Positions 2,137-64,000 of a stretch of 64,000 nt of DNA are shown here, piece by piece. Both the position numbers and the translations under genes were made by a program. Source of the DNA: Clostridia bacterium (GTDB lineage Bacteria > Bacillota > DSM-521 > Neomoorellales > SLTJ01); the NCBI GenBank assembly GCA_004347685.1, contig SLTJ01000032.1, positions 118,371-182,370 of the forward strand. The letters are read 5' to 3'. Position 1 is the stretch's first letter. Every line of letters starts with the position of its first letter. The notes beneath the pieces are model-generated. The model saw nothing but the letters and a program-made list of their open reading frames with translations, made no database searches and had not been told where the DNA came from.

Positions 2137-2730
2137 GTCGGGGGAGGGTGGCGCAGTATTCTAGTCAGCCAACCGGTCTTGAAGGCGGGCCTAAAAATCC
2201 GTCAAGGGCACAGCGATGAAGTTCCTGGTGCTGGCTACTGACGCCCAGTCAGGGGCTGGTGCTGGGAGTTAAGGCAGTGGGGCGATCTACAAGGGCATGT
2301 AGGCGTTGACCCTGCTGCCGTGGAGACCCGAGTGCGTGGCTTGCGCTACGGCTCGGGGCATAAACCTGCATGTCGGTACAAAGGGTGCTGGCTGCAGCGT
2401 AGCCTGCCTTGAGTGGTGCTGGTGGAAAGAGGTCCTCCGGGGCTTCACGGCCGTGAAGTCCGGGTTTGGCCTTAGAAACCAGTGCTGCAAAAGAGGCTAG
2501 GGATCGGCACAGGCTGTGGGGGAAAACCTCTAGACTGCTTGCCTGGGGCAAGACTTGCCGGGGATTAAAGTGTGGACTAAGTGGTAATCTAGCCCTGCCG
2601 GCGGCAACGCGGTAGAGTAACCTTTAAGGGGAAACCGCCTCTGCGGTGACGGGAGGTAGGTTACTGGGAAATCCTGCTAGACCTAAGCCGCAAAGTTTAC
2701 CCGGTGAGTTGCCACCCACCGTCAACATAA
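2137..2730 (+). ncRNA. ole: OLE (ornate, large, extremophilic) RNA, candidate
   Basis: About 590 nt of hairpin-rich sequence with only short, compositionally odd ORFs. It lies between ispA and a small multi-TM protein gene, followed by dxs-tlyA-nadK-argR-recN, which is the published OLE/oapA context. The ends are approximate and no covariance model was run. Confidence 0.75.
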
Positions 2731-2733
2731 AAG

Positions 2734-3333
2734 GTGATCTGTTCTTTGGCGAAAAACGGGCAACGCGCTCTGCGGCAAGGTATGCTTACGGGACTGGGGG
2801 CTTTTTTTTTAGCCCTGGTGGTAAACTTCGGCTCCCAGGGCCTTCTCAGCAGCCTGACCTCTATCATTCTGTCTTTCCTGCTTTTGTTGGTTATTATCCT
2901 GGTGGGAATCATATTCGACGTCGTGGGCGTGGCGACCACCGCGGCCAAAGAAGCGCCTTTCCATGCCCGAGCGGCCCGCAAACAGGTGGGGGCCAGGCAG
3001 GCCATCCAGCTTATCCGCCACGCCGACCGGGTAGCCAGTTTTTGTAATGATGTGGTGGGGGATGTGGCTGGTACCCTGAGCGGGGCCGTGGGAGCAGTGA
3101 TGGTAACTCGCCTGGTCGCGGGGGGAATGCCGGCCCCGGAACTGTGGTTGAGCACGGTAATGATAGCCGGAGTGGCGGCCCTGACCATCGGGGGCAAGGC
3201 TTTCGCCAAGGGGTTTGCCATTCGCGAGGCCGAGGCCATTGTTTACCGGGTGGGCTATGTGCTGGCCCTGGTTGAGGTCCACCTGGGATTGAGGTTATGG
3301 CAGGATAACCACAAGAGGGGAAGAAAGACTTGA
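2734..3333 (+). CDS. oapA: OLE-associated membrane protein
   Basis: 199 aa with about 4 predicted TM helices ([10 protein letters not shown]..., [17 protein letters not shown]..., [14 protein letters not shown]..., [15 protein letters not shown]). Lies directly downstream of the OLE-like RNA. Confidence 0.7.
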
Positions 3334-5279
3334 GCTACCTCGAACAGATCCACCAGCCAGGTGATGTCAAAGCCCTGTCAGACAAAGAATTGCAGATCCT
3401 AGCGGGGGAGATACGCGAGTTTCTGGTGAGTACCGTAAGTCGCACCGGGGGACACCTGGCGCCGAACCTGGGTGTGGTGGAGCTTACCCTGGCCCTGCAT
3501 ACGGTCCTCAACTCACCGGTAGACAAGATCATCTGGGATGTCGGCCACCAGGCCTACGTGCATAAGCTCATCACCGGACGGCGGGAGCAATTTGGCCGCC
3601 TGCGGCAGTTAAACGGGATCAGCGGCTTCCCCAAACGGGAAGAAAGTCCTCATGACGTATTTGATACCGGGCACAGCAGCACTTCGATCTCCGCCGCCCT
3701 GGGCCTGGCGGTGGCCCGGGACCTGGCGGGCGAAGATTATGAAGTGGTGGCGGTAATCGGTGACGGCGCCTTATCCGGCGGCATGGCGTACGAGGGGCTT
3801 AACCATGCTGGCCACGTGGGAACGCATTTTATTGTGGTTCTTAATGACAACGAAATGTCCATTGCCCAAAATGTGGGGGCCATGGCCAGTTACCTCAGCC
3901 GCTTGCGCACCGATCCCAAGTATTTCCGCCGCAAGGAAGAACTAGAGAGTTTCCTCCGCCGCCTGCCCAACATCGGCCCGCGGGTGGTACACCTGGCCGG
4001 CCGGATCAAGGATAGCTTCAAGTACCTGGTGCTACCCGGGGTGATTTTTGAGGAACTAGGCTTCACCTATCTGGGCCCCATTGACGGGCACAATATTACG
4101 GCCATGCAGGAGGTATTTGCGAGGTCGAAGCGCACCCCGGGGCCGGTCTTGGTCCACGTTCTCACCCGCAAGGGGAAGGGATATGAACCGGCAGAGGCCA
4201 ATCCGGATCTATTCCACGGCATCGGGCCCTTTGAAGTTACCTCAGGCCAACCCCTAGGACCGCCGGCAGGTGTGCCCAACTACACGCAGGTTTTCGGGCG
4301 GGCCCTGGCCAGGCTGGCTGAGGCTGATAGCCGGGTGGTGGCCATTACGGCGGCCATGCCGGACGGGACAGGGCTGAAGGAGTTCAGTCAGCGTTTCCCG
4401 CGCCGGTTTTTTGACGTCGGTATCGCCGAAGAACACGCGGTGACCCTGGCGGCCGGGATGGCCACCCAGGGGTTACGTCCGGTGGTGGCCATTTATTCTA
4501 CCTTTCTGCAGCGGGCCTTCGACCAGGTGCTCCACGATATCTGTCTGCAAAGGCTGCCAGTGACCCTGGCCATTGACCGGGCGGGCATTGTGGGGGATGA
4601 CGGGGAGACGCACCAGGGGCTATTTGACCTCACCTATTTGCGGTGCATTCCCAATATGACTGTCATGGTGCCCCGCGACGAAGACCGGCTGCAGCATATG
4701 CTGGCCGCCGCTTTACAAAATGAAGTCCCGGCCGCCATCCGTTACCCGCGTGGGCAGGGAGCAGGTGTCCCCTTGGCCGAGACCCCGCGACCGGTGCCCT
4801 GGGGCCAGGCGGAATTGCTGTTGGAGGGTGAGGACATAACCATTGTCGCGGTCGGGCCCCTGGTGTATGCGGCCCTGGAAGCCGCTGCCAGGCTGCGGGC
4901 GGAAGGTATCCGGGCCGCGGTGATAGATGCCTGCTTTGTCAAGCCTCTGGACCAGGAGCTGCTCCTGAGTTGGGCGGCAAAGACCGGGCGGGTACTGACC
5001 GTGGAGGAGAACGTCCTGGCCGGCGGTTTTGGCAGTGCCGTGCTGGAACTGCTGGCCCAAAACGGCTTGGCCATACCGGTCAACTGCCTCGGAGTTCCTG
5101 ATGTTTTCGTCAGGCACGGCAAGCCCGAGAGCCTGCGCCAGCAATTGGGGCTGAGCCCTGAGGGCATCGCGGCGCGAGTCAGGGCTTTGTTGGTAACCGA
5201 GCGGGAACAGCGGGTCATCGCTGCCCGGCCCGGCCGGACCGGCACCCGGGTGGCCGGCCATGCCCGCGCCAGCGGGTAG
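3330..5279 (+). CDS. dxs: 1-deoxy-D-xylulose-5-phosphate synthase
   Basis: 649 aa. N-terminus [30 protein letters not shown]...[21 protein letters not shown]-binding [15 protein letters not shown], transketolase-like C-terminal domains. Confidence 0.95.
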
Positions 5280-5288
5280 GAGACTCTG

Positions 5289-6104
5289 GTGACGGCCCGG
5301 CGCGTAAGAGTAGATAAGCTTCTGGTGCAACGGGGCCTGGTGGCCAGCCGGGAACAGGCCCAGACGGCGATCATGGCCGGTCTGGTTCGGGTCAACGGAA
5401 GCCCGGCCGTGAAAGCCGGGAGTTTGGTTGCGGAAGACGCGGAGGTGGAAGTGCGGGGAGCGGGGTGCCCCTACGTCAGCCGCGGCGGTCTCAAGCTGGC
5501 CAGGGCGATAGAGGCTTTCGGCCTGGATTTGCGGGACAAGACCGTCCTGGACGTGGGTGCATCTACCGGCGGGTTTACCGATTGTTGCCTGCAAATGGGG
5601 GCCAGGCTGGTGCTGGCGCTGGACGTGGGCTACGGGCAATTGGCCTGGAAGCTGCGACAGGACCCGCGGGTCAGGGTACTGGAACGGACCAACGCGCGTT
5701 ACCTGACGCCGGAACTCGTCGGACAAGAGGGCGATCTGGCTGTGATTGACGTTTCATTCATTTCCCTGACTCTGATTCTCCCGGCCGTAATCCCCTGTCT
5801 GAGGCAAGGCGGCCAGGTGGTGGCCCTCATCAAGCCCCAGTTTGAAGCCGGCCGGGAGAAGGTTGGGAAACGGGGCGTGGTGAAAGACCCGGACGTTCAC
5901 CGGGAGGTAATCGCCAGGGTGATGGCCTGCGGCCGGGCACAGGGCCTGGCGCCCAAGGGCCTTACCTTTTCGCCCCTTCTGGGACCGGAGGGCAATATAG
6001 AATACCTTTATTGGGGCGGGCCGGCTCCCGGGGAGGTAGATGACAGTATGGTGCCGGAGGTCGTGGCGCAGGCCCACGCTCAGCTCTTGAAGGGAGAAGC
6101 ATGA
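5289..6104 (+). CDS. tlyA: TlyA-family rRNA 2'-O-methyltransferase (S4 + FtsJ-like domains)
   Basis: RVDKLLVQRGLVASREQAQTAIMAGLVRVNG (S4 domain) and VLDVGASTGGFTDCCLQMGA (SAM-binding motif). Confidence 0.9.
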   Translation: MTARRVRVDKLLVQRGLVASREQAQTAIMAGLVRVNGSPAVKAGSLVAEDAEVEVRGAGCPYVSRGGLKLARAIEAFGLDLRDKTVLDVGASTGGFTDCCLQMGARLVLALDVGYGQLAWKLRQDPRVRVLERTNARYLTPELVGQEGDLAVIDVSFISLTLILPAVIPCLRQGGQVVALIKPQFEAGREKVGKRGVVKDPDVHREVIARVMACGRAQGLAPKGLTFSPLLGPEGNIEYLYWGGPAPGEVDDSMVPEVVAQAHAQLLKGEA

Positions 6105-12593: not shown

Positions 12594-13462
12594 ATGGTAG
12601 ATTTCCTGAAACGGCTGGATGAGTTCCGCAGGCAGGAGGAGAGCGAGGCCTGGCAAGGCACCTTTGCCGAGTACCTGGATATGGTGGTGGAAAGGCCACG
12701 GGTCGCCAGGACGGCGCATGCTCGCATTTATGATATGATCGTGGCCGCCGGAGTGGAAGAAAAGGACGGTCAGAGAAGATACGAGTTTTTCTCCCGGGAA
12801 ATCTTTGGGTTGGAAAAGACCCTGCAGCGGCTGGTCGAGGAATATTTTCATTCCGCGGCCCGGCGCCTGGATGTACGCAAGCGCATTCTTCTGTTGATGG
12901 GGCCGGTAAGCGGAGGCAAGTCAACTATCGTGAACATGCTCAAAAGGGGGCTCGAGCGCTATTCCCGTACCGAGGAAGGGGCCATGTACGCCATCGCCGG
13001 CTGCCCCATGCATGAAGACCCCCTACACCTGATACCGCGGGAACTACGTCCGGAGTTCGCCGAGAAATACGGTATTGTCATCGAAGGCAGCCTCTGCCCG
13101 GTATGCAGGTTAATGGTGGAGGAAAAGTACCGTAACCGGGTGGAGCAGGTGCCGGTGAAACGCATCTTCCTTTCTGAGGAAAACCGGGTGGGCATTGGCA
13201 CCTTCAGCCCCTCTGATCCCAAGTCCCAGGACATCGCCGACCTGACAGGCAGCGTGGACTTCTCCACCATTGCCGAATATGGCTCGGAATCTGATCCCCG
13301 CGCCTACCGGTTTGACGGCGAGCTCAACAAGGCCAACCGGGGGCTGATGGAATTCCAAGAAATGCTCAAGTGCGACGAAAAATTTCTCTACAACCTCCTC
13401 AGCCTTTCCCAGGAAGGGAATTTTAAGGCAGGCCGCTTCGCCCTGATTTCGGCGGATGAAAT
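12594..13462 (+). CDS. prkA: PrkA serine protein kinase, 5' segment (gene interrupted by ICE)
   Basis: MVDFLKRLDEFRRQEE..., Walker A LLLMGPVSGGKST, ...EMLKCDEKFLYNLLSLSQEGNFKAGRFALISADE. After 13460 the ORF reads into unrelated element sequence and stops at 13643. Confidence 0.9.
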
Positions 13463-15427: not shown

Positions 15428-17020
15428 TTATGGCAGGATCAGAGAACTAAAGCGCGGGACTACCCTTAGATCGTATCGCCCCTTGCCGGTTTTGGTAAGT
15501 TCCACCCGGTCAATGATAGACGACAGGATCTTGTTTTTTTCCGTCTTATCGGTTGCCTTCCTGTAAACCTCTAGGGCGCTTTTCACATCGGACTTGAAGG
15601 CGATGATGGCGCGCTCGACCTCCTGACTTTCCTGGTTCTTCTCCAGGGGTATGATTTTATCCAGGCTGGCCAGTTCTTGCTCTATTTCCTTCTTGCGCCT
15701 GAGAAAGTCCTCGTCACTGTAAATGCCGGCCTCGTACTTGTCAAAAATAAAGTCGAGCCTTCGTTGAAGGTCTTTTCTCTTCTTCTCGACCATCGTGGCT
15801 ACGTCCAAGGGGTTTTCCGCCTTCCTGGTGGTTTGCTGGTATTCTTTTTCGTAGATTGCTTTGAGCTCTCCGTTGTCCAGGGTTCCCAGGTGCGCCAGGG
15901 CGAGCAAAATGTCCCGTTCCACGTCGCGGTACTTGACGAAGGTACAACCGTCAGTATTGCACCACAGGAATTCTTTTTTGTAGACGCTTACCGAGCCGTC
16001 CTTTTTTCTGTAGTGCTGCGTAGAGTACTGGCGGATCATCCGGCGGCCACACTTCGTGCAAATGACCAGCCCCGCCAACTCACAGGGGGAGAAATCCAGC
16101 TTCGTATGGGGCAGGCGCCGGCTGTTTAGTTTATTCTGGGCCAAGTTCCACACCTCTCTCGTGATGATAGGTTCGTGGGCATTTTCTACCACAATCCAGT
16201 CTTCTTCCGGCCGGGGGTAGTATTTGTTGCCAATCCTTTTCCGGGTACGGTACTTGACCGTGCCGATATAGGCCACGTTCTCAATGACCCTTTGTACCGT
16301 TAAGTAGGACCAGCCACCTTTACCGTTTCTGGGGCTCGGTATGCCTAAGCGGTTCAGGTAGCCGGCGATGGCGCGGAAGGCCACGTCCTTGACGTTTCCA
16401 TCCGCCTGCTCCATGCCGTAGACGTACAGGTCAAAAATCATGCGCACGATGTTAGCTTCTTCCTCTACAATTTCTAGCCTGGTGGTCTTGCTGTTCAAGG
16501 AGTAGCCATAAGGGGTGGCACCCACCACCCAGCGCCCCTCGTGGGCCAGGTTCAGTTTGGAGGAAAGCATCCTTTCGCGGATCATCTCAAACTCTTCCCT
16601 GGCGAAGAAAAGCTCGAACCGGATTTGCCTGGCGTCGGAAGGGTTTTCTATGTCGTAAAGCTTGTAGGGCGTAATAATGTAAATCCGCTTTTCCTTGATG
16701 AGGTCGAAGATCTCCCCCATATCCGAGTAGGAACCGCGGCCCAGGCGGGCGATCTCCTTGACGGCGATGGCGTTATACCTTCCCTCCCGCAACCACTTTA
16801 GAACTTCCTGGAAGACTGGCCTGGTTTCGATCTTGTCCCCAGAACCTATTTCTTCGGCCATATCGTAAGGAATGGAAATGTCGTCAAGGACCTTGGTCAT
16901 AATCTTCTTTTGCGTGGACAGGGTATCCTCCCCTGTTCGCCGTTCCCGCTCAATATCCTGTCTAGAACGGCGAAGGTAACAGATGATCTTCTGGACATTG
17001 GCGTAATCGCTTTTGGTCAT
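15428..17020 (-). CDS. Large serine recombinase (integrase of the element)
   Basis: 530 aa. N-terminal resolvase domain (ICYLRRSRQD catalytic Ser context, GSGDKIETRP), recombinase domain, Cys-rich zinc ribbon (CTKCGRRM...CNTDGC) and coiled-coil C-terminus. Confidence 0.9.
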   Translation of the reverse strand: MTKSDYANVQKIICYLRRSRQDIERERRTGEDTLSTQKKIMTKVLDDISIPYDMAEEIGSGDKIETRPVFQEVLKWLREGRYNAIAVKEIARLGRGSYSDMGEIFDLIKEKRIYIITPYKLYDIENPSDARQIRFELFFAREEFEMIRERMLSSKLNLAHEGRWVVGATPYGYSLNSKTTRLEIVEEEANIVRMIFDLYVYGMEQADGNVKDVAFRAIAGYLNRLGIPSPRNGKGGWSYLTVQRVIENVAYIGTVKYRTRKRIGNKYYPRPEEDWIVVENAHEPIITREVWNLAQNKLNSRRLPHTKLDFSPCELAGLVICTKCGRRMIRQYSTQHYRKKDGSVSVYKKEFLWCNTDGCTFVKYRDVERDILLALAHLGTLDNGELKAIYEKEYQQTTRKAENPLDVATMVEKKRKDLQRRLDFIFDKYEAGIYSDEDFLRRKKEIEQELASLDKIIPLEKNQESQEVERAIIAFKSDVKSALEVYRKATDKTEKNKILSSIIDRVELTKTGKGRYDLRVVPRFSSLILP

Positions 17021-36715: not shown

Positions 36716-37066
36716 ATGTGGTTCAAGGACGCCGAGCACGAGCGGTCTTTCGCGGAACTGCGGGAGAAGGCCGGGGCCAGGCCCGGCGAGCGGGAGTACC
36801 TGGCGGCCCTCTACGTCCTGGCCGCCCTGGACAAGCCGGTGGCCAAATACGTCCAGCCCCGCCGGGTGGCCTTCACCGCGCTTTTTAAGGCCGCCGGGCC
36901 GTGGAGCAGCGGGGAAAAGGCCCTGGTCCGCCTGGCGGCCACCCTGTTCAACGGCGAGGCCTGGAAGGTGGCGGTGCACGACGTTTTCTCCTGCCTGGAC
37001 CCGGCCAACTGCCAGGCGGCCCTGGAGGCACTGAAGATCCGCTATCAGAAGACCGCGTTGTTTTAG
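36716..37066 (+). CDS. Hypothetical protein
   Basis: 116 aa. AAGGAGAGAAAGAAG precedes the ATG. No recognisable motif. Confidence 0.4.
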   Translation: MWFKDAEHERSFAELREKAGARPGEREYLAALYVLAALDKPVAKYVQPRRVAFTALFKAAGPWSSGEKALVRLAATLFNGEAWKVAVHDVFSCLDPANCQAALEALKIRYQKTALF

Positions 37067-37122
37067 GGAGAGGGGGCCCGCTAAGCGGGCCCTTGACGCC
37101 ACCCCGGAAAGGAGGCCTGGCC

Positions 37123-38490
37123 GTGCCGCTGGTGTTATTGTTTTTCCTGTCCCTGGTGGCCTACTGGTTACTCCTGCGCTGGCTTACCCGGCGGCGGGTG
37201 CTCACCCTGCCCCGCGCCCTGGCGACCGCCGCCATTCTGGCCTTGGCCCTACTGGACTTCTTTCTCACCGCGCCCCTCTTCCTTCTGCCCAAGACCGTCT
37301 GGCCGCCGCTGGCGCCGGCGATGACCTGGCCGGAGGTGGTGGCCTACCTGGCTTCCCCGGCCCCGGGCGGGGGCAACCAGTGGTGGCAGCTTACCCTGGA
37401 CCTTTTCCGCACCCGGCCGCCGGGCTTCTGGCTGGCGCAGGTACCTTTTCTCCTGGCGGCTTTCCCCCTGGTCCGGTGGGCGTGGCGGGCCGGCTGGCCG
37501 GCTGGCGAGCCCCGTGCCGCCCGCACGGCCACCCACGGCAGCAGCCGCTGGCGCGGCCGGGCCGAACTGAAGACCACCCTGCGGGCCGTAAACTGCGGCC
37601 GGCCGCAGGAAAGCGGCGTGGTGGTGGGAGGGGCGGGGAACAGGGCCTGGCTCACCCGGCCGGAGGTGGGCAACCCCCACGTCCTCCTCATCGGGGCCAC
37701 CCGGAGCGGCAAGAGCCGGCGGGTCATCCTGCCCACCGTCTGGGTGCTGGGCCGGGCTGGAGAGTCCATGATCCTCACCGACCCCAAGGGAGAACTCTAC
37801 GCCCACGCCGCCGGCTGGCTGCAAAGTCAGGGCTACCAGGTGGTGCTCCTGGATCTCCTCGCCCCGGGCCGGGGCAACCGCTGGAACCCCCTCGCCGCCG
37901 TAGCCCAGGCCTGGACCGCCGGCGAGGGCGAGGAGGCGGCGCGCCTGGCCTGGGAGATCGGCCACATCCTGGCCTATAGCGAGGGGCCGGGCACGGACCC
38001 CATCTGGCCCCAGGCAGAGGAATCCCTTATCGCCGCCCTCTGCCTGGCGGTGGCCGTGGAGGCCCCGCCGGAGGCGCGGCACATGGCTACAGCCTTTCGC
38101 CTGCTCACGGAACTGGGCCACGGGGGCGGGGAAGCCCTGGACGCTTGGTTCGCGGGGCTACCGCCGGACCACCCGGCGCGGCTGGCCTACGGCACGGCGG
38201 CTTTAAGCGAGAGCCGCACCCGCTCCAGCATCTACACCGGCACGGCGGCCCACTTGAGGCTCTGGGGGGACCCCGGGGTGGCCTGGCTGGGCGCCGCCTC
38301 CGACCACGACCCGGCCGCAGCGGGGTTAAAGCCCACGGCCGTCTTCCTCCTGATGCCGGACGAAGCCGGGGCGAGAAGGCCCATCGCCAGCCTCTACGTC
38401 AACCAGGCTTACGGCGCCCTGGCCCGGGTGGCCAGGGCCAACGGCGGAAAACTTCCCGTGCCGGTCTGGTTCCTTTTGGACGAGTTCGGC
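37123..38490 (+). CDS. Type IV coupling protein (VirD4/TraG family), exon 1
   Basis: Two N-terminal TM helices, Walker A IGATRSGKSRRVILP, ends ...VWFLLDEFG (Walker B) exactly at the intron 5' GTGCG. GGAAAGGAGG RBS before the GTG at 37123. Confidence 0.85.
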
Positions 38491-41007
38491 GTGCGCCCGC
38501 AAGCGTGCTGAAAAGCATCGCGTGGGTCTTTCTGAAATCTGCCTTTGGCAAGGCAGTGGGCTCGATATGGAATTGCCCATCATCACCCGGCTTATCCGAA
38601 AGGGAAACCAGACGGGGAGTGCAGCATGCCGGGAAAGGCGCAAGTCAGCCAACCACCAGGCTGCGACTGAGCGTCGAGATGAAAAGTCCTGTATGAGGAT
38701 AAAGGCTTGATTGCCTGAACGATAGCCAGAGGGGTTTTATCGTCAACCACGGCGGAAAGATGGTTACAAACGCCGTGTGGCAGTGGGGTTGCGTACAGTT
38801 GCCTAAGTGCGCATACCACCATATCCCCTGCCTCCCAGCCGCAATAAGCGGAAAATGGCGAAAGTCGTATCCGACAACAGGACGCGCCGCGTTCAGACTG
38901 ACCTAAACGGGGATGACCTAAACCGGAGTGCTTGCATCCGCAAGCTATGGAAATTGTTCCCGAAAATCCGGTATGGTCACGGAGCCCTCGTAGTAGTCCG
39001 AGGTGGGGAAAGCCCGCCACATGGCGAAGGAGGGCAGTTTACTCTCCACTACAACGAAGGAAAGGTGCGTGAGGCATCATGAGAAGTCCCCAAGTTGTAC
39101 TGGAAAATCTACAGAAGCAGTCCTTGAAAAAGGACTACCGGTTCGAGCGTTTGTACCGGAATCTCTACAACCCTGACTTTTACCTGCTGGCATACCAAAA
39201 CCTGTACGCCAACAAAGGAGCCATGACCCCCGGCGTGGACGGACTAACGCTGGACGGCGTGGGTATGAAGCGCATCGAATCCCTGATTCAATCGCTCCAA
39301 GACCACAGCTACCAGCCACAACCGGCCCGCAGGCGGTACATCCCCAAGAAAAGCGGGAAAGGCCAGCGGCCACTGGGGATTCCATCGGCAAACGACAAAC
39401 TGGTGCAAGAAGTCGTGCGCATGCTGCTGGAAAGTATCTACGAGCCGACTTTCTCGAAATTCTCCCACGGGTTCAGGCCGAACAGGAGCTGTCACACGGC
39501 ACTCGCCCAGGTGCAGAACAACTTCACGGGAGTTAAATGGTTTGTGGAGGGCGACATTAAAGCCTATTTTGATACCATCGACCACCACACGCTTGTGGGC
39601 ATCCTGCGCAGGCGCATCAAGGACGAATCCTTGATCGCCTTGATCTGGAAGTTCCTCAAAGCGGGATACATGGAGGACTGGCAATACAACGCAACCTATA
39701 GCGGCACGCCGCAGGGTTCGGGAATCAGTCCCCTCCTCGCCAACCTCTACCTCCATGAGTTGGACATGTACATGGAAGAGTACAAAAAGCAGTTCGACAA
39801 GGGCGACGAGCGCGCAGTGGGTAAGGACTATGGGCGCACCCATAGGACCCATCAGTACTGGAAGGAAAAGTACGACGCCCTGTGGCACACCATGACAGAG
39901 GAAGAAAGGAAGGCGGCCCAAAGAGAAATCAAAGCCCTGCGCAAGCAGTTCCAACAATACCCTGCCAAAGACCCCATGGATGAAAACTACCGCAGAATCC
40001 AATACGTGCGGTATGCGGACGATTTTCTGATAGGAGTAATCGGCAGCAGGGCAGACGCGGAGAAAGTTAAGGCCGATATTGGCCGGTTCCTCTCCGAAAA
40101 GCTGAAGCTCGCCATGTCCCAGGAAAAGACGCTGATTACCCACGGACAGGACAAGGCACGTTTCCTGGGATACGACATCTCCATATGCCAGGACACGGCC
40201 ACAAAGCGGACATCCAGAGGGCAATCCCGCGTGTACACCTACCGTGTTAAGCTGTTCGTCCCCAAAGAAAAGTGGGTCGGAAAGCTGCTGGAATATGGTG
40301 TACTTAAAATCAAGACGGACGAGCACGGCAGGGAAAAGTGGAAACCGCTGCAAAGAGACGACTTCATGGGATTGGAGCCTCGCGAAATCGTATCCATGTA
40401 CAACGCGCAAATCCGGGGCATGTACAACTACTACCGGCTAGCAAATAACGTCTCGGTGCTGAACAAGTTTTACTACGTCATGGAGTACAGCATGTACAAG
40501 ACCTTTGCAGGCAAATTCAGCACCACTGTTGGAAAGGCCAAGACCAAGTACACGCGCGACGGCGTATTTGGCGTGGAATACATGACCAAGGCCGGCCCCC
40601 GGAAGGTCACCTTCTATAAGGGCGGATTCTCTCGTGTAACAGCGCCGCTGGGGGCTGGCGTGGACTGCAAGCCGGAGTACGTGGTCAACCACCAGCCCAA
40701 GGAGCTATTCTTCCGCATAAAGGCCGCCAAATGCGAGCTTTGCGGCAAGGAACACACGCCGGTCAATGTGCATCAGGTAGAGCGCCTGAAAGACCTGTCC
40801 GGCAACCTTCCTTGGGAATGTGTCATGCTGAAAAAGCGCCGAAAGACACTGGTCGTCTGCGAGGAATGCCACCAATCCATTCATTTAACTCTGTAGATTA
40901 CGAGTAAATGGAGAGCCGTATACATCGAGAGGTGTACGTACGGTTCGGGGGCGAGCATCCGGAAACCTGCCGCAGCAATGTGGCAAGGCGCTGGATGCTT
41001 AGCCTAC
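38491..41007 (+). mobile_element. Group II intron (2517 nt) with RT/maturase/HNH ORF
   Basis: 5' GTGCGCC. Domain V GAGCCGTATACATCGAGAGGTGTACGTACGGTTC at 40912-40945. 3' ...GCCTAC. The flanking exons join in frame (LLDEFG|NVGKLPAM). Confidence 0.9.
39079..40896 (+). CDS. Group II intron-encoded reverse transcriptase/maturase with HNH endonuclease domain
   Basis: RT motifs (GTPQGSGISPLLANLYL, RYADDFLIG), X/maturase region, C-terminal CELCG...CEECHQSIH. Confidence 0.95.
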   Translation: MRSPQVVLENLQKQSLKKDYRFERLYRNLYNPDFYLLAYQNLYANKGAMTPGVDGLTLDGVGMKRIESLIQSLQDHSYQPQPARRRYIPKKSGKGQRPLGIPSANDKLVQEVVRMLLESIYEPTFSKFSHGFRPNRSCHTALAQVQNNFTGVKWFVEGDIKAYFDTIDHHTLVGILRRRIKDESLIALIWKFLKAGYMEDWQYNATYSGTPQGSGISPLLANLYLHELDMYMEEYKKQFDKGDERAVGKDYGRTHRTHQYWKEKYDALWHTMTEEERKAAQREIKALRKQFQQYPAKDPMDENYRRIQYVRYADDFLIGVIGSRADAEKVKADIGRFLSEKLKLAMSQEKTLITHGQDKARFLGYDISICQDTATKRTSRGQSRVYTYRVKLFVPKEKWVGKLLEYGVLKIKTDEHGREKWKPLQRDDFMGLEPREIVSMYNAQIRGMYNYYRLANNVSVLNKFYYVMEYSMYKTFAGKFSTTVGKAKTKYTRDGVFGVEYMTKAGPRKVTFYKGGFSRVTAPLGAGVDCKPEYVVNHQPKELFFRIKAAKCELCGKEHTPVNVHQVERLKDLSGNLPWECVMLKKRRKTLVVCEECHQSIHLTL

Positions 41008-54945: not shown

Positions 54946-55164
54946 GAGGAGGGGGGAGAGAAATCATGGGCACGTTACCTTTAATCCTTTGGGCCGGCCC
55001 TGGAAAAGCCCATAGTGATGATGAGGCCTTTTTGGGAGATTTTTGATGGAAACCAGCAGGAAAATCAAATAACGTGTCGAATAGCCATAACATGCTATTA
55101 ACCTTTTAGAGAAGGGCTGTATGATGAAAGGATTTCCAGGTACTAAAAGAACACTAGTTCAAAT

Positions 55165-55212
55165 GGGGGGGGGGGGGGGGTAATAATTGCTATAGATGTC
55201 ATTTAGTGGAAA
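55165..55212 (+). repeat. Poly-G tract (G16) + conserved 32-nt box, copy A
   Basis: G16 at 55165-55180, then TAATAATTGCTATAGATGTCATTTAGTGGAAA. Paralog at 59525-59569. Confidence 0.9.
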
Positions 55213-55332
55213 CAAATCCCCTCTACTTCCTCCTTCTCTTTTTTCTTCTTTTCCTTTGCCTCGCCCGAGGCAAAATCATTCTTTTCCTCCATAATTTCCC
55301 TAACACCAACAGCAAATTTACCTTCCCCGGGT

Positions 55333-55430
55333 ATCCTACGCTCAAGGCAAACCTGTCGAAAGGTAGGGACGCAGAGCCACGGGTTTTCGAGCCCCTTTTT
55401 CGGGGTATGATCGCCAGGCTGCTGCAGGAT
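55333..55430 (+). promoter_or_regulatory. c-di-GMP-I (GEMM-I) riboswitch #1
   Basis: ACGCUCAAGGCAAACCUGUCGAAAGGUAGGGACGCAGAGCCACGGGUU... matches the GEMM-I core (GGCAAACC..GAAAG..GGGACGCAAAGCC). P1 is ATCCT/AGGAT. Confidence 0.8.
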
Positions 55431-55739
55431 TCTTGCCTTTTAGCTGGTAGCTTTACCCGCTACCATGGGCAATAAGCTTTTGAAAGAAAGCTCCTGAAGG
55501 TAGCTTGCTTCAACCTGAGCGCATGGTTGGAAGTAGTCATCGAATGGCGGGCGGCCTTAAGCAACCCAGGCTTCTTATCTGTTGGGCGGTCCTATTTGTT
55601 GAGTGCATACCTGCCAGTGGATGCTACGCCCTACATCCCATAGGGGAAATGCCGAGCAGAGGTGGCAAGGCTAGTGACTGCCCATCACGAGTTCAGGAGA
55701 AAGCGCGCAGCGCTATTTGCTTGAAGGAGGAACAAAGAT

Positions 55740-59362: not shown

Positions 59363-59524
59363 AATAACTCTTCCTTAAAACCAGGTTAGTCAACCTTTTC
59401 CCCTGGGTCTCGATAGCTTTTGGCAGGAGATTGGAATAAAATGTCGAAGAAACAAATTAAGCCATTAGAAAGGACTGGACACAGTGGCAAGGCCTGTCGA
59501 AAAGATGAACAATTGTTCAATTAT

Positions 59525-59569
59525 GGGGGGGGGGGGGTAACAATTGCTATAGATGCCATTTAGTGGAAA
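59525..59569 (+). repeat. Poly-G tract (G13) + conserved 32-nt box, copy B
   Basis: G13 at 59525-59537, then TAACAATTGCTATAGATGCCATTTAGTGGAAA (30 of 32 identical to copy A). Confidence 0.9.
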
Positions 59570-59679
59570 TATGTCTCTGCTGCTTTTTTCTCCCTCTCTG
59601 TGGCTTTGCCCGGTGTGGAAATACTCCTGCCCGCTGTCGTTCCCCTGACATTTTAACTGCAACTTCACTTTCTCCCAAT

Positions 59680-59775
59680 ATCCTACGCTCAAGGCAAACC
59701 TGTCGAAAGGCAGGGACGCAAAGCCATGGGTCTAAAGCCCCTTTTGGGGGTATGATCGCCAGGCTGCCGCAGGAT
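59680..59775 (+). promoter_or_regulatory. c-di-GMP-I (GEMM-I) riboswitch #2
   Basis: ACGCUCAAGGCAAACCUGUCGAAAGGCAGGGACGCAAAGCCAUGGGUCUAAAGCC... is a near-textbook match to the Vc2-type aptamer. Confidence 0.88.
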
Positions 59776-59791
59776 TGTTTCTGTTTGTATC

Positions 59792-59814
59792 GGCAGCTCA
59801 AGCTGCCATTTTTT
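59792..59814 (+). terminator. Expression-platform terminator of riboswitch #2
   Basis: GGCAGC-TCAA-GCTGCC + ATTTTTT. GCTGCC is also part of the aptamer 3' P1 region, allowing mutually exclusive folds. Confidence 0.65.
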
Positions 59815-60832: not shown

Positions 60833-60862
60833 TTGACGTATTCTTCCTAGACATGGTAAGAT
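60833..60862 (+). promoter_or_regulatory. Sigma-A-like promoter upstream of riboswitch #3
   Basis: TTGACG, 18 nt spacer, TAAGAT with TG at the extended -10 position. Confidence 0.5.
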
Positions 60863-60883
60863 ATGGTATATACGATCCAATAC

Positions 60884-60978
60884 CAGCGCTAAGGGTAAAC
60901 TTACCAAAAGGTGAGGACGCAGAGCCATAGGGTCTAAGGTGCTGGTGTGATGGCACTACGACAGCCTGGCCGCCGCTG
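60884..60978 (+). promoter_or_regulatory. c-di-GMP-I (GEMM-I) riboswitch #3
   Basis: CAGCGCUAAGGGUAAACUUACCAAAAGGUGAGGACGCAGAGCCAUAGGGUCUAAGG... P1 is CAGCG/CGCTG. More divergent than #1 and #2. Confidence 0.7.
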
Positions 60979-60989
60979 TAGGACGGTCT

Positions 60990-61019
60990 GACCTGCCCTT
61001 TCTCGCGGCAGGTCTTTTT
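60990..61019 (+). terminator. Expression-platform terminator of riboswitch #3
   Basis: GACCTGCC-(9 nt)-GGCAGGTC + TTTTT. Confidence 0.7.
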
Positions 61020-61124
61020 GTCTCTAGAAGGGCTGTTCTGTATTGCCGATAAACAGTGTCGGGGTTGGCGATAAAACTTCGGCGCTTCGCTCGGCGGCTT
61101 CCCCAAAAAGGAGGGCGGTGAGCC

Positions 61125-61370
61125 ATGCAGCGGAAGCCAAAACTGCGGGAATTGATCGTTAGAGTTAAAAACGGTGAGGAGGACGCCGTCCTTGAAGTGG
61201 TGCAGCGGTTCATTCCACTGGTCAGGAAGTACAGCCGTCGCATGGGCTATGACGAAGCCTGTTCCGACCTGGTCGTCTGGATTGTAAGCGCGGTCCACAG
61301 GTATGAACCGCGTACCACCTGGGGCCGGGACGAACTCCAGAAATATTTCGCGAGCAAACGGCATGACTAG
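61125..61370 (+). CDS. Small HTH protein (Tn916 orf8 / HTH_16-like)
   Basis: LRELIVRVKNGEEDAVLEVVQRFIPLVRKYSRR resembles the small conjugative-transposon HTH/sigma region-2-like proteins. AAAGGAGGG RBS. Confidence 0.55.
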   Translation: MQRKPKLRELIVRVKNGEEDAVLEVVQRFIPLVRKYSRRMGYDEACSDLVVWIVSAVHRYEPRTTWGRDELQKYFASKRHD

Positions 61371-61388
61371 GAAAAATTTTTTTTGGTA

Positions 61389-61424
61389 GGGGGTTGTCAA
61401 AATGCCCCCTACTTTCTCTTTATT
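61389..61424 (+). promoter_or_regulatory. Element-specific promoter-like box, copy 1
   Basis: GGGGGTTGTCAAAATGCCCCCTACTTTCTCTTTATT, part of a ~75-nt repeat shared with 62060-62135. Confidence 0.45.
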
Positions 61425-61514
61425 AAGTAGAGGGCAAGAAATGAAAACCGGGGGAGGTGAAAAAGATGGAACCCTACACCTGACGACGGTGAATACGACC
61501 TGGAAGAGGCTAGG

Positions 61515-61904
61515 GTGGTGGCCTGGTTCGTGACCGGCCTACGCCATGAAGCGCTCCGGTTGGCCAGGAAACACAGGCGACTGAAAGAGCGTGAGTTGCT
61601 CATCCTAAACGAACAATTGAAGAACGAGGCGGGAGGTGAGGCCATAGCCAGAATGCTCAGTACCGTTAACCCACCGCCGGACCTCCTTACCGAATTAGAG
61701 AACAAGCTGGTCCTCCAGGAAGCCCTCGCGTTGCTCACGCCGCTGCAGCAGAGGGTGGTCGTGGCAACGGTCCTGGAGGGTGTAACGGAACAAGAATTAG
61801 CCGGGGAAATGGGGGTGACCAAGCAGGCGGTAAACCGGATCAAAGAACGGGCTCTGGACAAGTTGCGAAAATATTTTGTCCTGGACAAGCCTCCCAGCAA
61901 GTAG
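61515..61904 (+). CDS. Small sigma-70 region-4 protein (Tn916 orf7-like)
   Basis: LTPLQQRVVVATVLEGVTEQELAGEMGVTKQAVNRIKERALDKLRKYF region 4 HTH. The start is ambiguous: the strong RBS+ATG at 61466 is in the -1 frame relative to this ORF and stops after 5 codons. Confidence 0.6.
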   Translation: MVAWFVTGLRHEALRLARKHRRLKERELLILNEQLKNEAGGEAIARMLSTVNPPPDLLTELENKLVLQEALALLTPLQQRVVVATVLEGVTEQELAGEMGVTKQAVNRIKERALDKLRKYFVLDKPPSK

Positions 61905-62077
61905 AGCCTAGTCCAGGACGGACAACCACAACCGCCCCGATCCGCAGGTAGTGGATTGCCGTTGATCATTGTACTCTATTCACGACTTGAAGTAAACCCG
62001 GAAGAGAATCCCTGTCACCGTGCCGGTAACTCTTCTCTACAAATTGCTGAACTAGCCTGGGTAAAAATTTTCCTTGA

Positions 62078-62113
62078 GGGGGTTGTCAAAATCCCCACTG
62101 CTTTCTCTTTATA
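62078..62113 (+). promoter_or_regulatory. Element-specific promoter-like box, copy 2
   Basis: GGGGGTTGTCAAAATCCCCACTGCTTTCTCTTTATA. Confidence 0.45.
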
Positions 62114-62117
62114 GGGT

Positions 62118-62551
62118 GAAGGGTCAAGAAGTGGGTCTTGTAGAACGGGTGCAACAAGTGTTCTTTGAGAATGTAACGCCGTTACCGCCCGGAGCGCCAG
62201 GCATTGCGGTGGCGGCGAGGCTTGGTGCCCGTGCTCACGCCGGTGTACCTGACCGTATCAGGCCGGAAGGTGGCACAAGGCTATAGTGCCACCACAAACG
62301 GTTGGATAAGGTTCGGGGAACCACCCTCCCTCCGGAGAGGGTCTGGGCGTGGAGTGAGCCCTGTCGGCCGCGGTAAAAAACGCGGTGGGAACCACAGGCG
62401 GGGTAGGCGCGCGCCAGCAGCGAGGCGCAAGCGGGTACCAAGGGCATTTGCCCAATAGGAGGCTGGGGGCCGGGCAACAGATCCAGCAAACTCGGAACCG
62501 GGGACTTCTTAAAGTAGAGCAAGAGCCGAGCCCCTGAAACGTTAGCAAACT
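62118..62551 (+). other. Hairpin-dense non-coding stretch (candidate ncRNA or single-strand origin)
   Basis: About 430 nt with no credible ORF. Local stems GGTGGCAC..GTGCCACC, CCCTC..GAGGG, CCGCG..CGCGG, GGGCA..TGCCC. Preceded by box copy 2. Confidence 0.35.
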
Positions 62552-62853: not shown

Positions 62854-62986
62854 AGAGGCGGCAACTATAGCATTGGTTCTTCATATTATTACAGGTTTTA
62901 AGCGCGAGCTTTATAGTCAGGAAGAGACCACCATCGAGGTGGTTCTTTAAGCAAACGGTAATTGAACTAATGAGTATACAATCATT

Positions 62987-64000
62987 GAAATAATCGTAGC
63001 CCACACCAATGAGGCCGAGTACCGGGCCTTTATAAGCAACCCCAAAAACGAGGCCCTGCGCTCCCGCATCATCGTCATCCCGGTGCCCTACAACCTGAAG
63101 GTGAGCCAGGAAGTAAAGATCTACGAGAAGCTCATCCGCGAGGCGGATATTGACGTGCACGTGGCTCCTTACGCCCTGTGGACGGCAGCCATTTTTTCCG
63201 TGCTGACGCGCCTCAAGGAATCCAAGAAGCAGGGCATGGACTTGCTGAAGAAAATGAAGCTGTACGACGGCGAGGACGTAGAGGGGTTCAAGCAGAAGGA
63301 CGTGGCCGAGCTGCAGGCCGAGGCCGAAGGAGAGGGCATGAGCGGAATAGATCCTCGTTACGTGATAAACCGCATCTCCAGCGCCCTGATTACCAAGGAT
63401 ACGAAATGCATAAACGCCCTGGACATTCTGCGCGCCTTAAAGGATGGGCTGGACCAGCATCCCTCCATAACCAGGGAGGACCGGGAGAAATATTTTAACC
63501 TCCTGGCCTTGGCCCGCCAAGAGTACGACGAGGTGGCCAAGAAGGAAGTGCAGCGGGCCTTTGTTTACTCCTATGAGGAATCGGCCCGGACCTTGTTTGA
63601 GAATTACCTGGACAACGTGGAGGCCTTCTGCAATGGGGTGAAGGTCAAGGACCCCATCAGCGGCGAGGAACTGGAGCCGGACGAGAAACTCATGCGCTCC
63701 ATTGAGGAACAGATCGGGGTGGCGGAAAGCGCCAAGAAGGCTTTCCGCGAGGAAATCCTCATCCGCCTTTCTACCTATGCCCGCAAGGGCAAGCGTTTTG
63801 AGTACAGCTCACACGAACGGCTGCGCGAGGCCATTGAAAAAAAGCTATTTAGCGACCTGAAGGACGTGGTAAAAATAACCACTTCCAGCAAGACTCCCGA
63901 CCCCGAGCAGCTCAAGCGTCTCAATGCCGTGGTGGACCGGCTGGTATCCAGCCACGGGTATTGCCCTGTCTGTGCCAACGAACTTCTGAAATACACCGGA
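62987..64000 (+). CDS. prkA: PrkA serine protein kinase, 3' segment (continues beyond window)
   Basis: E-IIVAHTNEAEYRAFISNPKNEALRSRIIVIPVPYNLKVSQEVKIYEKLI... is open to the last base of the window. Absent from the ORF track because it has no stop codon in the window. Confidence 0.9.

Follow-up and report, generated by a model that had tools for sequence, protein, structure and literature searches.

A conserved class-I c-di-GMP riboswitch upstream of Orf8/Orf7-type regulator genes, which probably encode a split sigma factor, in a clostridial integrative and conjugative element

The 64,000-nucleotide window analysed here, a stretch of contig SLTJ01000032.1 from the metagenome-assembled genome of a Clostridia bacterium, contains an integrative and conjugative element (ICE) in which a class-I cyclic di-GMP (c-di-GMP) riboswitch lies in front of two small regulator genes of the same domain families as orf8 and orf7 of Tn916. 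The best overall explanation, in which we have moderate confidence, is that a c-di-GMP OFF switch gates a split-sigma pair that activates the ICE. The new aspect is the target of the switch: regulators of a conjugative element that are of the Orf8/Orf7 type and probably form a split sigma factor, joined to the switch in a conserved unit. A full-text search of the published literature found no riboswitch described on ICE regulators, and the original prediction for this locus, made from the sequence letters, had likewise been aware of no characterised case. The unit is compact, taking up about 1.1 kb for a promoter, an aptamer, a terminator and the two small genes:

60833-60862, plus strand: sigma-A-type promoter-like site TTGACG-N18-TAAGAT, with an extended -10 (TG)
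60884-60978, plus strand: class-I c-di-GMP (GEMM-I) aptamer, Rfam RF01051 covariance model
60990-61019, plus strand: intrinsic terminator, composed of GACCTGCC (60990-60997), a 9-nt loop, GGCAGGTC (61007-61014) and T5 (61015-61019)
61125-61370, plus strand: gene for an 81-amino-acid (81-aa) HTH_16 (PF12645) protein, Tn916-orf8-like domain family (PF12645 28.4 bits, cut-off 22)
61515-61904, plus strand: gene for a Sigma-70 region-4 (r4) protein, 129 aa from a GTG start, Tn916-orf7-like domain family (Sigma70_r4, r4_2)

The original prediction had named each of these parts (the promoter, a GEMM-I-like aptamer, a clean terminator, a helix-turn-helix (HTH) gene and a sigma region-4 gene), and all were found in place. 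Both genes face the right attachment site of the ICE, attR, as had been proposed, and lie about 1.1 kb from it.

By sequence and covariance model (CM), the segment 60884-60978 is a genuine class-I c-di-GMP aptamer and an ordinary member of the known class. The RF01051 (c-di-GMP-I) match at 60884-60977 on the plus strand scores 60.1 bits against a gathering threshold of 35 and spans the full-length model (1-87 of 87), with E values of 3e-9 in the whole-window search and 1.1e-10 in a local search. It is the third match of its clan in the window, as its earlier designation as riboswitch #3 implied, after those at 55336-55426 and 59684-59772. P1 is formed by CAGCG (60884-60888) and CGCUG (60974-60978), receptor-like CUAAGG/CUACGA sequences are present, and the CM alignment keeps the ligand-contact equivalents: a G left unpaired ahead of the P1a 'GU', the A that comes first after GACGC and the C in 'AGC'. 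These we take to be G20, A47 and C92 in the Vc2 numbering of the crystal structures; cGAMP-specific variants of the class have an A at position 20.

The promoter-like site upstream is one of 3 sigma-70-like sites that a promoter consensus scan found in the 1.9-kb region, against 0.9 expected, and the closest relative, locus L007, has TTGACA-N18-TAAAAT at the equivalent relative position. The same scan predicted no sigma-70-like promoter between 61020 and 61125, that is, from the terminator to the first gene, an interval in which an independent promoter had been named in advance as evidence against riboswitch control.

Conservation in related elements indicates that the aptamer and the regulator genes belong together. 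Homologues of the 81-aa protein were collected as 31 clusters, and their loci come from species-representative genomes (20), metagenomes (16) and one further element. In about 26 of these 37 loci, or about two thirds, the HTH_16 homologue is immediately preceded by an aptamer. Among the genome loci, 13 of the 20 have an RF01051 or RF03167 match immediately upstream of the HTH_16 gene and in the same orientation, with a gap of about 70-160 nt in 12 and of 380 nt in L013. These 13 represent at least eight genera or metagenome-assembled genome (MAG) lineages, and include Dethiobacter, Thermoanaerobacterium, Desulfotruncus, Thermincola, Peptococcaceae, Clostridiales PH28_bin88 and several Bacillota MAGs. 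A class-I aptamer precedes the HTH_16 gene in 12 of the 16 metagenomic loci, one further locus being too truncated to judge. In one metagenomic element (L001-L006) a class-I aptamer of 79 bits lies 160 nt upstream. Genes farther upstream vary from locus to locus (a LytTR regulator, an HD-GYP gene, a CRISPR array), so that the aptamer travels with the regulator pair. Judged from these alignments and gene orders, the riboswitch-regulator association is not a matter of chance. The unit is kept across Peptococcaceae, Moorellaceae, Thermoanaerobacterium, Dethiobacter and other Bacillota, and its recurrence in such a share of related elements suggests that they probably read host c-di-GMP before switching on.

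The genes that follow the pair in the relatives support the view that it acts at the element's recombination end. In L017 and L018 the pair is followed by a co-directional HTH_17 Xis-like gene and a tyrosine integrase gene, and in L001, L021 and L024 by a co-directional gene for a large serine recombinase; a YvrJ-family gene also accompanies the pair in L001. As a separate observation, L001 has a second class-I c-di-GMP riboswitch (1913-2005) ahead of an agr-like quorum-sensing operon (2203-5098) that encodes a histidine kinase, AgrB, a 42-aa peptide and a LytTR regulator, and this operon is located immediately upstream of the riboswitch-regulator unit.

The terminator hairpin consists of 8 bp, is G+C-rich (-14.7 kcal/mol) and begins 12 nt past the end of the Rfam match; the consensus scan missed it because that scan allows loops of up to 8 nt. 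Of 23 distinct leaders, 20 have a detected terminator, whose stem begins 11-21 nt past the end of the Rfam match to the aptamer, and in the window and the relatives' leaders alike the detected terminators share no nucleotides with the aptamer. Since the terminator lies wholly outside the aptamer, the bound fold would leave it free. The architecture thus implies an OFF switch, a polarity that the original prediction had left open: high c-di-GMP would terminate transcription, and low c-di-GMP would permit the regulators to be made. The terminator platform itself is ordinary.

A candidate antiterminator is the pairing of the conserved AAGGGUA (60891-60897) on the 5' side of the aptamer with UGCCCUU (60994-61000) in the 5' arm and loop of the terminator. 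Prefix folds of the growing window transcript predict this pairing before the 3' arm of the terminator is made, a comparable pairing is predicted for the leaders of 14 out of 22 relatives, and GCCCUU-like sequences, complementary to AAGGGC, are common to many relatives. A second candidate would pair the aptamer tail CCUG-GCCGC with GCGGCAGG of the terminator 3' arm. Two results count against a working switch of this kind: suggestive as they are, neither candidate exceeds composition-matched shuffles in duplex energies or prefix folds, and the terminator is retained in the minimum free energy (MFE) structure of every full-length fold. A further MFE hairpin at 60968-60988 was dropped as a part of the platform, being specific to the window and without conservation in relatives.

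The opposite polarity, in which c-di-GMP suppresses termination, would have the ICE regulators made at high c-di-GMP, in the sessile or biofilm state, where cell contact favours conjugation. It is biologically plausible for an element with genes for a Tad pilus and for a giant surface protein with PKD domains. Other class-I aptamers, moreover, can work as ON switches: in Bc1, one terminator is reported to unfold with rising c-di-GMP (PMC11218506). We nevertheless consider an ON switch unlikely here, since a bound aptamer cannot sequester a terminator that starts beyond it and shares none of its nucleotides, and no conserved intermediate hairpin fit to be a ligand-favoured antiterminator was found in the leaders, the one at 60968-60988 being unconserved. 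The neighbouring riboswitch #2, moreover, has a textbook OFF design, and the C. difficile class-I c-di-GMP riboswitches that have been tested are all OFF switches (PMC6200980). Among the latter, Cdi-1-3 upstream of flgB combines the same RF01051 family with an intrinsic terminator, and c-di-GMP leads to termination there (PMC6200980). The window differs from the C. difficile switches in that its targets are mobile-element regulators rather than flagellar, adhesin or protease genes, its antiterminator is not obvious and an AAAA loop replaces the GNRA loop.

This loop is one of several peculiarities that speak against an OFF switch of full strength in the window. Where a type-1 GEMM-I aptamer has a GNRA tetraloop that docks into its receptor, the loop here reads AAAA instead of GAAA; a conserved C of P1a is changed to U, giving U.G for C-G; and the score of 60 bits compares with mostly 72-89 in the relatives. 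Affinity or sensitivity may therefore be reduced. Taken further, the same changes, together with an MFE that favours the terminator regardless, would fit a decaying aptamer in this particular ICE, whose leader would act as a constitutive attenuator or insulator and whose regulator pair would be freed from c-di-GMP control. Such decay appears improbable to us given the full-length match, the intact P1, tetraloop-receptor sequence and G20, A47 and C92 equivalents, the presence of an AAAA loop also in the aptamer of L024, and the integrity of the promoter, the terminator and both genes.

The two regulator genes probably encode the halves of one sigma factor. The 129-aa protein matches Sigma70_r4 with 39.4 bits against a cut-off of 24.1, matches r4_2 as well, and aligns only to the carboxy-terminal (region 3-4) part of sigma models (TIGR02937 positions 54-164 of 165). 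The 81-aa protein, whose gene has the ribosome-binding site (RBS) GGAGG at 61110-61114, gives an all-helical AF2 model (pLDDT 74), and the best PDB matches of this model are all to sigma region 2 (sigma-E, 2map/2mao/5or5, and RpoS). From the predicted fold, the 81-aa protein is probably a sigma region-2-like subunit, and by analogy the pair probably forms a split sigma factor like SigO-RsoA, as has also been proposed for Tn916 Orf7/Orf8. The weakness of the matches tells against this assignment: Foldseek E values are about 0.6 with TM scores of 0.57-0.59, and profile E values against sigma-2 models range from 0.004 (NF010500 sigma-E model) to 0.03, with SigF region 2.1 at 0.026. In the SigO-RsoA system of B. 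subtilis the sigma-4 and sigma-2 domains reside on separate polypeptides, both of which are required (PMC7826278; PMC10028694). The window resembles it in its adjacent genes for a sigma-4 polypeptide and a candidate sigma-2-like one, for which the evidence is the weak fold and sequence matches just given, and the YvrJ-family gene that accompanies the pair in L001 is a further likeness. A difference is that SigO-RsoA is a chromosomal system with PoxdC (PMC10028694). If the split-sigma reading is true, the unit would be a natural example of a riboswitch-controlled split sigma factor, that is, an AND gate. We know of no riboswitch on SigO-RsoA.

The comparison with Tn916 holds in part. The orf7 (sigma factor) and orf8 (HTH protein) genes of the Tn916 family are described (PMC12229494), and in Tn916 Orf7 and Orf8 activate Porf7, from which read-through drives xis/int and, after circularisation, the transfer genes (PMC5812530). 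By domain families and published descriptions, the window and the Tn916 Porf7-orf7-orf8 region have in common a small HTH protein and a sigma-like protein, encoded by adjacent genes that point outward at a recombination end. Both also have an upstream transcription-attenuation device, which is the tetM leader in Tn916. The input differs: Tn916 relies on tetracycline-dependent attenuation via antisense orf9, while the window has a c-di-GMP riboswitch directly on the pair. Several differences weigh against carrying the Tn916 scheme over to this element. The gene order is reversed, HTH then sigma in the window and orf7 then orf8 immediately upstream of xis-int in Tn916; no xis-int follows the pair in the window ICE, whose serine recombinase lies at the opposite end; and the ICE is not of the Tn916 family, having a serine recombinase, a VirD4-type coupling protein, a MobL relaxase, TrbL_4 and a Tad pilus. 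The original prediction of a Tn916 orf8/orf7-like pair is thus upheld for both domain families, with corrections as to gene order and element family. The orientation toward attR, at the right end of a real ICE, stands as well. The recombinase of this ICE is encoded at its far end and on the other strand, so that transcripts reading across the joint would be antisense to it.

Beyond the riboswitch and the two genes, the right end of the ICE has further conserved features:

61371-61445, plus strand: conserved element c1, between the 81-aa gene and the r4 gene
61466-61483, plus strand: conserved 5-codon mini open reading frame (mini-ORF) ATG GAA CCC TAC ACC TGA, with a strong RBS, GGAGGTG, at 61454-61460
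62056-62135, plus strand: conserved element c2, a second copy, 3' of the r4 gene
62158-62454, plus strand: conserved structured non-coding region of about 300 nt, G+C-rich, downstream of c2

Elements c1 and c2 share a layout of about 55 nt, in which an A/T tract is followed by GTAGGGGG-TTGTCAAAATG-CCCCCTAC-TTTCTCTTTAT-N3-GTAGAGGGC. TTTCTCTTTAT is invariant, there is a GGGGG/CCCCC inverted repeat, and the element is conserved beyond its flanking genes: nucleotide identity is 84-95% across 17 relatives or more, a group in which the HTH_16 proteins mostly share about 50-70% identity. The geometry is promoter-like (A/T tract, TTGnnA-N17-TCTTTAT), the RBS of the r4 gene lies about 30 nt downstream of c1, and in many related elements a c element is found 5' of genes on either strand. 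In the riboswitch-less loci L014, L015 and L033, for example, an opposite-strand copy precedes a divergent gene for a membrane protein by about 50 nt. This placement and geometry fit a candidate promoter for the element's own sigma factor, like the self-activated Porf7.

The promoter reading has a rival. Both c1 and c2 also form a hairpin followed by a U-rich tract, as in a terminator, and c2 was flagged by the consensus scan. A terminator or attenuator is therefore an alternative candidate, and the two readings are not separable. Covariation in two alternative hairpins of c1/c2 did not rise above shuffles, a test made uninformative by the high conservation of the element. The window contains only two c elements, none of them near the recombinase or transfer genes. 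The elements were also compared with the pemK RNA motif, which is found downstream in relatives, and gave no Rfam match at E <= 5. A conserved element between both genes means that the riboswitch may gate only the 81-aa gene directly. As SigO-RsoA needs both of its subunits, gating one subunit would gate activity even with c1 acting as a terminator or as a promoter in its own right.

The start of the r4 gene is itself unusual. Its reading frame is conserved upstream of the GTG to about 61467, and the mini-ORF overlaps this conserved 5' extension out of frame. Among the relatives the mini-ORF reads M-x-P-Y/D-T-stop, with the stop kept as TGA, TAA or TAG, and the r4 frame, which is +1 to it, encodes a conserved W-x-PTPD...DLEEAR with synonymous changes (Arg as AGG, CGT or CGG). 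In 10 of 13 distinct loci no canonical start is present upstream of the conserved stretch. It is possible that translation of r4 begins by a +1 frameshift from the mini-ORF or by an unusual translational coupling. An assembly error as the source of the out-of-frame ATG was ruled out, the mini-ORF being conserved in relatives.

The region downstream of c2 is a candidate non-coding RNA or single-strand origin at the ICE end, judging from its conservation and predicted structure. It has 76-81% nucleotide identity in L001 (6665-6953), L007 (4037-4305), L009 (3965-4232) and L034 (4008-4294), with indels of 25-31 nt that all fall within one variable hairpin. RNAalifold predicts a multi-stem structure closed by a long-range helix, with five compensated pairs and many G-U pairs on the plus strand, a modest support that comes from five sequences. 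The region 62158-62454 has no Rfam match at E <= 5, and a minus-strand protein gene at 62.16-62.45 kb was ruled out by the coincidence of the 25-31-nt indels with the variable hairpin. In another branch of relatives the pemK RNA motif (RF02913) sits between the pair and the xis/int or serine recombinase genes, the place that the 300-nt region occupies in the window's branch (L017 4915-5009, L018 4897-4974, L019 4922-4999, L021 4437-4514, L024 4671-4748 and L042 4915-5009).

In the mechanism that we favour, the housekeeping-type promoter at 60833-60862 would transcribe the leader with the aptamer and then the terminator. At high c-di-GMP the bound aptamer would leave the terminator free, and transcription would end prematurely; at low c-di-GMP an alternative pairing, for which AAGGGUA:UGCCCUU is the best candidate, would allow read-through, and with it synthesis of the 81-aa HTH_16 protein, taken as the sigma region-2-like subunit. 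This protein and its region-4 neighbour would combine into a two-subunit sigma factor, which may activate c1 before the region-4 gene, a positive feedback like that of Tn916 Porf7, and also c2, directed through the structured region toward attR. The original interpretation as a whole is partly supported, its anatomy and the conservation being solid and the functional output inferred.

Excision or transfer as the output is an inference only: the recombinase gene lies far away on the other strand, the c elements are all local, and this ICE therefore shows no direct path by which the pair would lead to excision or transfer. The riboswitch could be functional while the pair controls only itself and the structured RNA of the right end, or cargo, or immunity or maintenance functions, with c1 possibly a terminator, as its hairpin and that of c2 would allow. 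L036, in which the pair precedes a PAS-GGDEF-HD_5 gene (4206-5690) rather than a recombinase gene, agrees with such a limited role, and is another tie of the module to c-di-GMP turnover. We regard this more local role as a less probable alternative. Most relatives with enough flanking sequence, however, have the pair just ahead of xis/int or serine recombinase genes that run in the same direction at the element end, and the Tn916 precedent likewise points to xis/int (PMC5812530).

Should activation of the ICE by the pair be true, a second-messenger riboswitch on master regulators would tie horizontal gene transfer to the motile or sessile decision of the host without a protein sensor. To our knowledge, the timing of ICE excision and transfer is understood for a few models, which respond to the SOS response, quorum sensing or tetracycline attenuation. 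Other mobile elements are connected to c-di-GMP in different ways. The C. difficile prophages phiCD630-1 and phiCD630-2 likewise carry class-I switches, which control type I antitoxin RNAs (PMC11477304); the target there is thus a prophage-maintenance antitoxin small RNA and not a pair of activator proteins. ICEs of the SXT/R391 family encode diguanylate cyclases (Bordeleau 2010, as cited in PMC5812530), and the window ICE, which resembles them as an ICE in c-di-GMP signalling, carries an HD-GYP-type gene. The SXT/R391 ICEs alter host c-di-GMP and are not known to sense it by an RNA switch on their own regulators.

The features that define the ICE and the other riboswitches of the window are as follows:

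13457-13462: attL core TGAAAT, where the amino-terminal half of prkA ends (...FALISADE)
15428-17020, minus strand: large serine recombinase of the ICE (Resolvase, Recombinase and Zn_ribbon_recom domains; XisF/Ccr-like)
55336-55426: riboswitch #1, c-di-GMP-I, RF01051
59684-59814, plus strand: riboswitch #2 with its platform, c-di-GMP-I-GGC variant, RF03167, 73 bits (aptamer match 59684-59772)
62986-62991: attR core TGAAAT, where the carboxy-terminal half of prkA resumes (IIVAHTNEAEY...)

The element is about 49.5 kb long and is integrated in prkA, splitting the AAA domain of PrkA. By its gene content (recombinase, relaxase, coupling protein, type IV secretion ATPase) and its att sites, it is an integrative and conjugative element. 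The transfer genes encode a VirD4-type (T4SS-DNA_transf) coupling protein, TrbL (TrbL_4), a VirB4-like ATPase and an M23 peptidase, and there are also genes for a MobL relaxase, a ParM-like protein, SSB and toxin-antitoxin pairs, along with a Tad/Flp pilus cluster and a gene for a surface protein of 1724 aa with PKD domains. The final 8 kb are a regulatory block, which contains the three riboswitches as well as genes for an HD-GYP-type protein, a CheX-like protein and a full-length sigma factor. We take prkA to be a sporulation-associated protein kinase gene, and the interruption of prkA, the shared TGAAAT and the large serine recombinase resemble recombinase-excised elements that interrupt sporulation genes.

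Riboswitch #2 has a classical OFF platform, in which the aptamer tail GCUGCC competes with the terminator GGCAGC-tcaa-GCUGCC-AUUUUUU, and it precedes the ICE-borne HD-GYP-type (HD_5) gene at 59813/59834-60562. OFF logic on an HD-GYP-type gene would amount to positive feedback on c-di-GMP. A bolder proposal, which we hold to be rather doubtful, is that of a clostridial ICE family activated through c-di-GMP, in which one OFF riboswitch acts on a split-sigma subunit and a second on an HD-GYP phosphodiesterase to give a bistable commitment, the split sigma factor firing a conserved promoter that also yields the 300-nt structured RNA. Here low c-di-GMP would turn the phosphodiesterase on and so lower c-di-GMP further.

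Riboswitches #1 and #2 lie within a duplicated leader of about 290 nt (55149-55441 and 59507-59786, 85-95% identity), each copy of which is preceded by a run of 13-15 G residues (55166-55180 and 59526-59538) that is possibly prone to slippage. The VirD4-type coupling-protein gene (36901-41007) is apparently interrupted by a group II intron, with a reverse transcriptase/maturase/HNH ORF at 39079-40896 and an Rfam Intron_gpII (RF00029) match at 40911-41007. Finally, an OLE RNA (RF01071, 511.6 bits) is located at 2132-2731, in the chromosomal flank upstream of the ICE.

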